Shown piece after piece: positions 14,159 through 16,349 of a stretch of DNA of 64,000 nt. The stretch spans positions 760,879 to 824,878 of the forward strand of contig BFEA01000009.1 in assembly GCA_003427395.1 (NCBI GenBank), written 5' to 3'. Position 1 is the first letter of the stretch. Each line of letters begins with the position of its first letter. The position numbers were made by a program, and so were the translations under genes. The notes beneath the pieces are model-generated. The model saw only the letters and a program-made list of their open reading frames with translations, was not told the origin of the DNA and ran no database searches. Origin of the DNA: Chara braunii (Eukaryota; Plantae; Charophyceae).

Positions 14159-14692
14159 TCACCCGCCGCGCACCTGTGCCTCCAATAAATCCAAACGTGC
14201 CAGCTTGTCATCGTCGAAAATCAAAGTAGACCTTCGTCCACATCGCATGACTCTAACAATCCGAGTATTATAGAAGGAGGCCATCCGAGAGGCTAGTCTC
14301 CAAACTATAACTCGGAAAGGTCGACTAAGTCCAAACAGGTGTCGAGTCTCTGTGTCCCGGATCCAGACGACGCCGAAACGCCTACCGGACAAAGTAATCT
14401 TGATACTCACAATGACTCGAGAGAGGCATTGGAGGTTACTCGCGTGGTGGAAATACAAAGTATATCCGTAAAGCTCGTCGGGAGTCCGAGCCGTGTTGGC
14501 TCGAAAATCCGCGCGAGTATTAGGGAAAAATCCCTCGCCATTTTGAAGCAGTCCAATGAAGTCGAACTAGTCGATAGGAGATTCATCTCAAATTCGTAAA
14601 AGTCGCGCCGCACTCCTGAGGAAATCATACTCGTGTGTATCACGAACCAGCAGATACCTCAGGATTGTCAGGTCTCGTCGTGCTCCAGGCAT
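14159..14692 (-). pseudogene. LTR-borne ORF2, 177 codons plus terminal stop, two internal stops, unknown function
   Basis: actaat...gcag|ATG at 14692 is in frame with ORF 14159-14458: MPGARRDLTILRYLLVRDTHEYDFLRSAARLLRI*DESPID*FDFIGLLQ...AQVRGG. The stops (TGA, TAG) are each one transition from a sense codon. Confidence 0.55.
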
Positions 14693-14715
14693 CTGCATAT
14701 CAGAACGTATCCAAA

Positions 14716-15228
14716 TTAGTCGCGTAAAAACTCCTCGAGTTCTTCAGCTTCATCTTCCAAATCATCATCATATAATGCTTCGGCTCCTATAATAACGAAT
14801 CTATTGACACGTATCCGCTCTGCGTAGTATATGCCAAAGAATGGGCCTTGTCGCTCATTTAGCCAAAGCACGTAACGAACGAACGGCAACCTTATTTCCG
14901 GGATCTCGACCACCTGTAGATTCAGTTCGTATGACTGCAATATCACCAAGTTCATATTAACGAAGTGACGTTCGGGCAATGGCGGTGCGAACTCGTAGTG
15001 AATAACATCCAAGCCGGCCGGTCTCCTGAAAATAAGTCGTCTGGGGGGTCTCTGCGCACTGCCATCCCAAAACCGCGGAACGTCCTCCTCTGAGTACAGC
15101 TCTGACGGGTTATAAACAAGTCGGCCTATCCTTTCTACTCTTTCTCCGTTACGTCTTTGGATTTCAACCCTTTCGGCCGCCGAATTGCGGTCGTAGAAAA
15201 GGAACAAGTCCATGGATCCCGCAACCAT
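14716..15228 (-). CDS. LTR-borne ORF1, 170-aa hypothetical protein with acidic C-terminus
   Basis: Uninterrupted ORF with protein-like composition, ending DDDLEDEAEELEEFLRD. The ATG is directly preceded by tcttcctttttctttcag. Confidence 0.65.
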   Translation of the reverse strand: MVAGSMDLFLFYDRNSAAERVEIQRRNGERVERIGRLVYNPSELYSEEDVPRFWDGSAQRPPRRLIFRRPAGLDVIHYEFAPPLPERHFVNMNLVILQSYELNLQVVEIPEIRLPFVRYVLWLNERQGPFFGIYYAERIRVNRFVIIGAEALYDDDLEDEAEELEEFLRD

Positions 15229-16349
15229 CTGAAAGAAAAAGGAAGACGAATGTGATCAAGTTAAAACTAAGTATCACTTAAAATATTTATCTTCCTTCTG
15301 GCCCGTGATTCTTATGGTACGACCAACCTCGTCAGGGGTATCTAAATGTACTCCGTTCAGCTAATGGAACATGAGTCGGGCTGCTTGTGGCGCCAACTCT
15401 TCATACGTTAGTGGTACCTAGGATGACCACTTAAACAGGATTGCTAAGGCAGTTTTCCTTTTTCGCAAGGCGTCAAGAAATAAATTTTCTTCCGTGTGGA
15501 TGCCTTCTCCATTACCCTAAGAGGTGGTCTGGGATACTCCTTCTCCTCGCCCGAGTACAAAACTCGGATCTTAGAAGTCAGACCGTCTCCACCGAATCGG
15601 CATAGTACCCCCCCCCAAAGCGGTCCACTCTAAGTCGATAACAGGGCCGGCCCCTAAGGCAACGAACCCCCGCCCCAAATGCCTCCTAGAAAAAGGGAAA
15701 ACACCTACATAGCATCAAGTAAAGTTTTGCCGCCTAGCGTGAAAGTAAACTCAGACGAAAAAAGAGGAATCGTAGAAAGATAGAATCATTCAGACTGACA
15801 GACATAGATGGAAGAGGGTTATTCGGGAAAGAATGGGTAACCTCATGAATAAGTCTAAACCAAGTTTAATTTCTCTTCCTTATGCTCGCTTCGTTTCTCG
15901 TTGTCTTTTTTTTCTTTTATTTATACATAGAATACAAGCACGGAGGTGAAAAAGTCAACCATTATTTCACCGTCATCACCCTCATCCAATTCAGTCCACA
16001 TGCTGTACCTGCAGTCAAAACCCAACGACACACAGACCACCATGCATTCCTTTACCATTGTAAGACTCCCAGTCATACATGCAAGAACACACATCCTCTT
16101 CCCTTTTTCAATGAACATTCAATAAAACAGNTCAAAGCAAGTGTGGGTTCACTCATGTGTGAAGGGAACTGAGTCAATTTAACTGANTGATTGACCTTGA
16201 GTGAAATTGAATAAATGGCCNACTCAAGAAGACCGTATAAATCACACTCCAGAGAATACAATCGTCACAATGAGTCGCCTGCAAAACAATCCACACCACT
16301 CCTTAGAACGATCACTTGTTGCGACACCCTGCGTCGCCGCCGTAAAATT

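Follow-up and report, generated by a model that had tools for sequence, protein, structure and literature searches.

Accessory genes within the LTR of a Ty3/Gypsy retrotransposon of Chara braunii and their likely expression by leader splicing

Plant Ty3/gypsy retrotransposons are known to carry extra open reading frames (ORFs) which, in the published text available, are located in the internal region of the element, upstream or downstream of gag-pol (PMC7264820, PMC6317226, PMC3485330, PMC6431247). According to the accessible parts of these reports, the LTRs of such elements reach about 5 kb (PMC6317226), those of Ogre range from 1.9 to 6.5 kb (PMC6431247), and the env-like ORF of Bagy2 has been reported to be spliced (PMC7264820). 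Excerpts from the literature on other systems state that bdelloid LTR retrotransposons express their ORF3s from spliced mRNAs (PMC5408684), that CERV of the Caenorhabditis elegans element Cer1 is needed for the export of unspliced genomic RNA (PMC10309623), and that the sag/naf ORF of MMTV lies in the U3 of the LTR (PMC9412291).

LTRs of the plant lineage have been treated as non-coding control regions. The available portion of an Arabidopsis atlas of TE products contains the phrases "within the LTR", "in the LTR" and "LTR region" 0 times (PMC13547354). One survey, by the limits given in its accessible sections, covered LTRs of at most 6000 bp and extra ORFs of at least 250 codons (PMC6317226), so that a 6.8-kb LTR with ORFs of 170 and 177 codons could not appear there. 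In our literature search, no report was found of ORFs inside green-lineage LTRs or of the Chara family considered here; the Chara genome paper, which lay outside the search, may describe the family. The present analysis concerns a 64,000-nt stretch of C. braunii DNA (contig BFEA01000009.1, positions 760,879 to 824,878; hereafter the window), in which two ORFs, ORF1 and ORF2, are placed inside the LTR of a Gypsy element. The preliminary description of this locus had remarked that extra ORFs in plant Gypsy elements are normally internal rather than in the LTR, in agreement with the text at hand of the four papers (PMC7264820, PMC6317226, PMC3485330, PMC6431247). Unlike the plant classes eORF-5'/3' and aORF, as these are set out there, ORF1 and ORF2 of Chara lack the internal location.

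The element, its LTRs and the surrounding window

The element, on the minus strand, is embedded in an extended array of diverged tandem repeats (about 6000-12850 and 34850-37120). Self-BLAST and alignment delimited a direct repeat with TG...CA ends and a length of 6.8 kb per copy, corresponding to the 3' LTR (12871-19695) and the 5' LTR (28027-34850). The first open part of gag (26911-27720, 269 aa) has its ATG directly after an acceptor-like tract and AAG, and is followed by a decayed pol (21400-25773) with domains in the order PR, RT, RH and INT; its sequence is broken up not only by stops and frameshifts but also by a gap and a poly(A)-tailed repeat. Pfam recognised gag (a weak Retrotrans_gag match), PR, RT and the zinc domain of INT, the scores of gag and PR being under the curated cut-offs, and RH was placed by eye from protein P0009 (with PF17917/PF17919). 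All of the gag matches (20/20, among 1051 candidates) were Chara braunii proteins, 56-89% identical. By its two TG...CA LTRs and its gag-PR-RT-RH-INT order, the element is classed as a Ty3/Gypsy LTR retrotransposon. Between INT and the 3' LTR there was no minus-strand ATG ORF of at least 100 aa, a weak test for env in a decayed copy. No TGG-type primer-binding site was found after the 5' LTR (28008-28026), and the longest self-complement in the LTR was 9 nt. The GCGTCGTTC word was observed at 28008-28026 and again within a short inverted repeat that immediately precedes the 3' LTR (19696-19740).

The differences between the two LTRs are confined (42/42) to the outer 521 and 399 nt, where they amount to ~4.6%. 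The cores, 13392-19296 and 28547-34451 (5905 nt), are identical including their N bases, whereas the outer rate predicts ~270 differences for this length. The core probably represents one collapsed assembly contig placed twice, and the two copies of ORF1 and ORF2 are therefore counted as one observation. The flanks of the LTRs, compared for a target-site duplication, match at 2 of 5 letters; a collapsed LTR could join the flanks of different insertions. The LTR identity of 99.4% is not taken to indicate a young element, given the ~4.6% divergence of the outer parts and the decay of gag-pol; with a core that probably represents a collapsed contig, the age of the element exceeds what this figure implies.

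The poly(A)-tailed repeat within pol lies around an N gap at 24881-25480, and pieces related to it were located at 9966-10116, 10701-10764, 37121-37182 and 37352-37556. A second, more distant and decayed Gypsy gag-pol is present on the plus strand at about 49000-52600, and its surroundings displayed no tblastx similarity to the LTR of the first element. The window also contains a 170-aa ORF with Pfam DUF7869 (2323-2835, minus strand, E 2.4e-28) and, at 57121-57158, a segment which we take to be a mate-pair library junction adapter left in the assembly.

Two open reading frames within the LTR

ORF1 (14716-15228, minus strand) is an intact orphan frame of 170 aa with an acidic C-terminal tail, which starts at CAG|ATG and contains no stop, and it recurs in the other LTR at 29871-30383 (start 30383). 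ORF2 (14159-14692, minus strand) has 177 codons, of which codons 35 and 42 are in-frame stops, also starts at CAG|ATG, and recurs at 29314-29847 (start 29847). The two frames and their state, as first described, were thus confirmed by coordinates in both LTRs. When the N-free 2090-nt region 14041-16130 was subjected to dinucleotide shuffling, an ATG ORF of at least 170 codons was obtained in 4 of 2000 shuffles and one preceded by CAG in 0/2000, while an ORF2-like frame allowing two stops appeared in 143/2000, or 4/2000 with CAG|ATG. The base composition by codon position of ORF1 resembled that of gag and RT, and that of ORF2 did so less.

RNA runs X1-X6 were chosen by species label; the share read was 6-13% per raw run. 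Over 14041-16130, at 85% likeness, X1, X2, X3 and X4 gave 4, 349, 30 and 10 records, respectively; none was 99% alike, and hence the RNA reads derive from other, diverged copies. Over 14560-15300, at 80% likeness, 76 reads of X2 and 2 contigs of X4 were obtained, with 0 from X5 and X6, and the reads covered 28 of 30 bins. X1 and X3 barely touched ORF1 and ORF2, since their 4 and 30 reads in all were mostly elsewhere.

A selection tally was made on the 40 differences listed against these diverged copies (ORF1, 32; ORF2, 5; spacer, 3), with 58 further ones outside the list. In ORF1, 18 of the 32 differences were synonymous against an expected fraction of 0.29 (p=0.0012); the rough N/S ratio of 0.32 is a signature rather than a true dN/dS, as the tally pools several copies together with the window copy's own mutations. 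Third codon positions hold 19/32 of the listed differences and none of them creates a stop, whereas the other two sense frames over the same stretch would have 5/32 and 6/32 synonymous changes, with 5 and 6 changes involving stops. Where reads have loose ends within either ORF, inspection by eye showed that the frame is maintained, that stops are absent and that several third positions carry synonymous changes. In two relatives the ORF1 frame, also by eye, has no stop at the end seen in the window copy and would overlap the ORF2 start. The preliminary description had set a dN/dS near 1 with frequent frameshifts against a coding role; ORF1 instead displayed a synonymous excess, and among the differences listed (76 X2 reads and 2 X4 contigs) no indel was found in the ORF1-ORF2 stretch. 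As judged from the aligned copies, this pattern shows purifying selection on ORF1 across copies, the mark of a selected accessory ORF, and ORF1 is very probably a real gene.

For ORF2, 6 of 10 differences were synonymous (5 + 5 listed differences, from two read alignments), a non-significant excess (p=0.09). A search in which X replaced the stops of ORF2 matched one protein among 332 candidates, the gene model CBR_g49381 (P0021), which has the same Met start, is open where the window copy is broken, and is identical at 65 of the first 79 residues. In this predicted Chara model, the ORF2 copy of ~80 residues is followed by an RFC1-like AAA lid fragment, and the model may reflect a chimeric LTR-host transcript or else an artefact of gene prediction. 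ORF2 is probably also a real gene, with weaker backing from its sequence than ORF1.

Homologues of ORF1 were detected neither by word search, HMMER (1.84 billion representatives), Pfam and PHROGs nor in metagenome contigs, viral contigs and PDB sequences, and the open part of ORF2 had no Pfam, PHROGs or viral-contig match. In the databases searched, neither ORF has a recognisable homologue outside Chara. Their atlas recognition values were 2009 and 2214, under the mark of 2300, with all atlas hits <0.9, and single-sequence AlphaFold2 gave uninformative folds (mean pLDDT 41.0 and 36.3). Paralogy of ORF1 and ORF2 was considered and is not claimed, as the comparison gave a hint only: the global score was reached in 58/3000 shuffles, the local score in 297/3000 and the DNA score in 119/300.

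Promoter, leader and acceptor-like contexts

A CCAAT motif with a TATAAAA box (17212-17222, minus strand) was read from the sequence as the predicted LTR promoter; the TATAAAA, at 17218, is the sole one on the LTR minus strand, and the CCAAT precedes it. It is followed by a predicted non-coding leader exon of ~180 nt (17017-17200), which is ATG-free and ends in AAG before the putative donor GTAGGG (AAG|GTAGGG, first intron base 17016). The degenerate tandem repeats just after this donor, at 16400-16900 on the minus strand, have a unit of ~45-50 nt. All three donors proposed in the preliminary description were located (first intron bases 17016, 18130 and 18627), but as leader ends they fared unequally: if the CCAAT/TATAAAA box is the promoter, only 17016 fits, the other two being upstream of the box. 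Donor motifs were also observed at 16008, at 13718 and at the LTR end (28026), the last being a GTATGC directly after the 5' LTR end (28021-28026). In the gene model CBR_g41393 (P0009), from a related copy, a peptide of the LTR end is joined straight onto the gag Met. Being a prediction only, the model suggests that the gene predictor treated the gag AG as an acceptor, and the join fits use of the LTR-end donor in that copy. Downstream of donor 17016, there are 23 ATGs before ORF1 and 73 before gag, which makes scanning of an unspliced RNA appear implausible.

CAG stands before 3 of the 92 ATGs on the LTR minus strand, compared with 14/906 and 14/931 on the two strands of the window. Of 1820 ATGs scored on both strands of the window, 84 were directly preceded by HAG. 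When these 84 contexts were ranked by pyrimidine tract, the two ORF1 copies (0.94) and gag (0.88) occupied the top three places. The polypyrimidine tract with CAG before the ORF1 ATG (15229-15250, minus strand) is accordingly the best of the 84 as a predicted acceptor, and the gag ATG at 27720, which had been described as lying behind an acceptor-like context, indeed follows a pyrimidine tract and AAG, third of 84. The 23-nt spacer between ORF1 and ORF2 (14693-14715, minus strand) ends in CAG and is a weak predicted acceptor; with a pyrimidine fraction of 0.50, the ORF2 contexts rank 33 and 36 of 84, i.e., mediocre. In an X4 contig the spacer differs at 10/22 positions, yet by eye the four letters that directly precede the ORF2 ATG align again, and X2 has no listed difference there. 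The retention of these letters amid a diverged spacer fits a conserved acceptor. The claim that each ORF starts exactly at a 3' splice site was hence borne out as far as the CAG|ATG motif is concerned, and for ORF2 that motif is a weak one.

A third acceptor-like AG at 15686 (exon start 15685) ranked 5 of the 486 AGs in the LTR. It begins the block most matched by diverged relatives (15515-15690, minus strand), which forms a depth peak with loose ends; those listed upstream of the block consist of unspliced pyrimidine-rich sequence. X1 and X3 reads at this block were mostly on one side, the sense strand of the element if the library is of the usual stranded kind, and a DNA pattern of the block had 0 metagenome matches. 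A decayed coding-like stretch extends after this AG to about 15274. A third ORF is not claimed here: the three frames gave 5, 5 and 3 of 13 synonymous differences, without excess (30/40 listed differences used). Elsewhere in the LTR, a 48-codon frame with one stop (16001-15852, minus strand) begins a few bases after CAG|GTACAG, which is both acceptor-like and donor-like; it has an acidic start, a hydrophobic middle and a basic end, and no Pfam match.

No GT-AG joint at the ORF1 or ORF2 AG was listed among the reads, whose coverage was low, largely two-stranded and from diverged copies. The joints listed were three skips with non-GT-AG ends over 14041-16130 and none over 14560-15300. Among the loose ends shown (15/50 and 6/7 for the two regions, respectively), none at either AG resembled the leader, and the X2/X4 loose ends at ORF2 were diverged ORF1 tail and spacer. 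One X4 contig followed the genomic sequence without a break across the ORF1 AG (15045-15268); at the ORF2 AG, X2 reads and an X4 contig were likewise unspliced. The ORF1 start was covered at a depth of 0-3. X2 reads were found on both strands about equally, for which DNA carry-over or intronic copies are possible sources. Being few, on both strands in the best-covered run and from diverged copies, the unspliced reads over the AGs do not refute leader splicing. The proposal that one leader is alternatively spliced to ORF1, ORF2 or gag therefore stands in its anatomy; no junction was listed for it at the ORF1 and ORF2 AGs, and two of its three donors do not suit the likely position of the promoter.

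Expression of the LTR genes and comparison with known systems

The LTR-borne accessory genes are considered to be real and leader splicing to be likely. In the model that we prefer, and to which we give slightly better than even chances as a whole, transcription would start near 17190 at the predicted promoter of the LTR itself, and the ATG-free leader would end at donor 17016. The spliceosome would then pick one of several acceptors, those of ORF1, ORF2 or gag, and each join would put an ATG right behind the leader AAG. AAG before an ATG is a better initiation context than the genomic CAG. Unspliced RNA would serve as the genome, because reverse transcription of a spliced genome would yield an LTR without the ORFs. 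In this model ~4.3 kb of the LTR would follow the start, an intron-containing RNA would need export, and, speculatively, the ORF1 and ORF2 proteins may be element-side accessory factors acting, for example, in the export of unspliced RNA or against silencing.

Two other arrangements would keep the ORFs as genes and express them differently. It is improbable, in our estimate, that transcription starts downstream of both ORFs, so that they lie in a 5.8-kb U3, as MMTV sag does, and are expressed from the 3' LTR through a splice donor close to the 5' end of the RNA (13718/28873 or 28026). The donor motifs at 13718 and 28026 are good, the P0009 model joins the LTR end to gag, and such a start would avoid a first-strand strong-stop DNA of ~4.3 kb; against this, the sole TATAAAA (17218) is upstream of the ORFs and comes with a CCAAT and an ATG-free leader. 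Expression without splicing, from an internal start near ORF1 with ORF2 reached by leaky scanning or stop-restart and the AG|ATG incidental or vestigial, is likewise unlikely. Every read seen over the AGs is unspliced, the ORF2 acceptor is weak, the spacer has only 23 nt, and the overlap of the ORF1 frame with the ORF2 start seen by eye in two relatives fits translational coupling. This arrangement, however, gives no reason for the finding that, of 1820 ATGs, those of ORF1 and gag have the strongest acceptor-like contexts; there is no TATAAAA near ORF1, and the X2 reads, on both strands, need not be mRNA.

The ORFs might also be no genes of the element at all. Passive capture of host exons or genes, with their original acceptors and now decaying, would account for the two stops in ORF2 and the decayed frame after the third acceptor-like site, but the gag-pol of the window copy is decayed too, so that decay reflects the age of the copy. 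Moreover, ORF1 has no host or other homologue among 1.84 billion representatives, the only match of ORF2 is another copy of the element, and the synonymous excess is among element copies; we regard capture as quite improbable. Still less credence is given to chance open frames or an assembly artefact, a reading that is very improbable overall and largely refuted for ORF1. The probable collapse of the LTR core, its N bases, the lack of a target-site duplication, the atlas recognition below the mark and the poor single-sequence folds are in its favour, whereas the shuffle test, the frame-specific synonymous excess, the independent reads in 28/30 bins and the independent ORF2 copy oppose it.

The leader-splicing model can be carried further to a more tentative reading, which we hold to be somewhat less likely than not, in which the LTR would be a self-contained multi-gene cassette with a promoter, a non-coding leader and, downstream of the transcription start, at least two selected accessory genes with their own acceptors, the leader being shared with gag. 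If so, every solo LTR of the family would stay a protein-coding unit, and a Rev- or CERV-like means would be needed to keep the ~4.5-kb leader unspliced in genomic RNA. More generally, each element would carry two copies of any LTR-internal gene under selection, solo LTRs would retain such genes, and they could become joined to host exons, for which the predicted model CBR_g49381 is a possible example. Confirmation of leader splicing would establish a green-lineage Gypsy element with expression in the style of complex retroviruses and would provide two new candidate families of accessory proteins.

Among known systems, the element is similar to Athila, Ogre, Retand, Bagy2 and Retrosat2 ORF0 in having lineage-specific orphan ORFs beside gag-pol and very long LTRs. 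As in Cer1 CERV and the bdelloid ORF3s, which the accessible text describes as accessory proteins made from spliced mRNA (PMC10309623, PMC5408684), splicing is predicted for ORF1 and ORF2. The bdelloid ORF3s are reported there to lie downstream of pol, whereas ORF1 and ORF2 are inside the LTR; no similarity of either to CERV or the ORF3s was found. The location of a coding ORF wholly within the LTR is shared with MMTV sag/naf, as far as the available account goes (PMC9412291). In that account, MMTV is a mammalian retrovirus with one ORF region, in U3, driven by LTR promoters. The Chara element, in contrast, has two ORFs predicted to be downstream of the promoter. No env-like ORF was seen in it, nor was sequence similarity to MMTV found.
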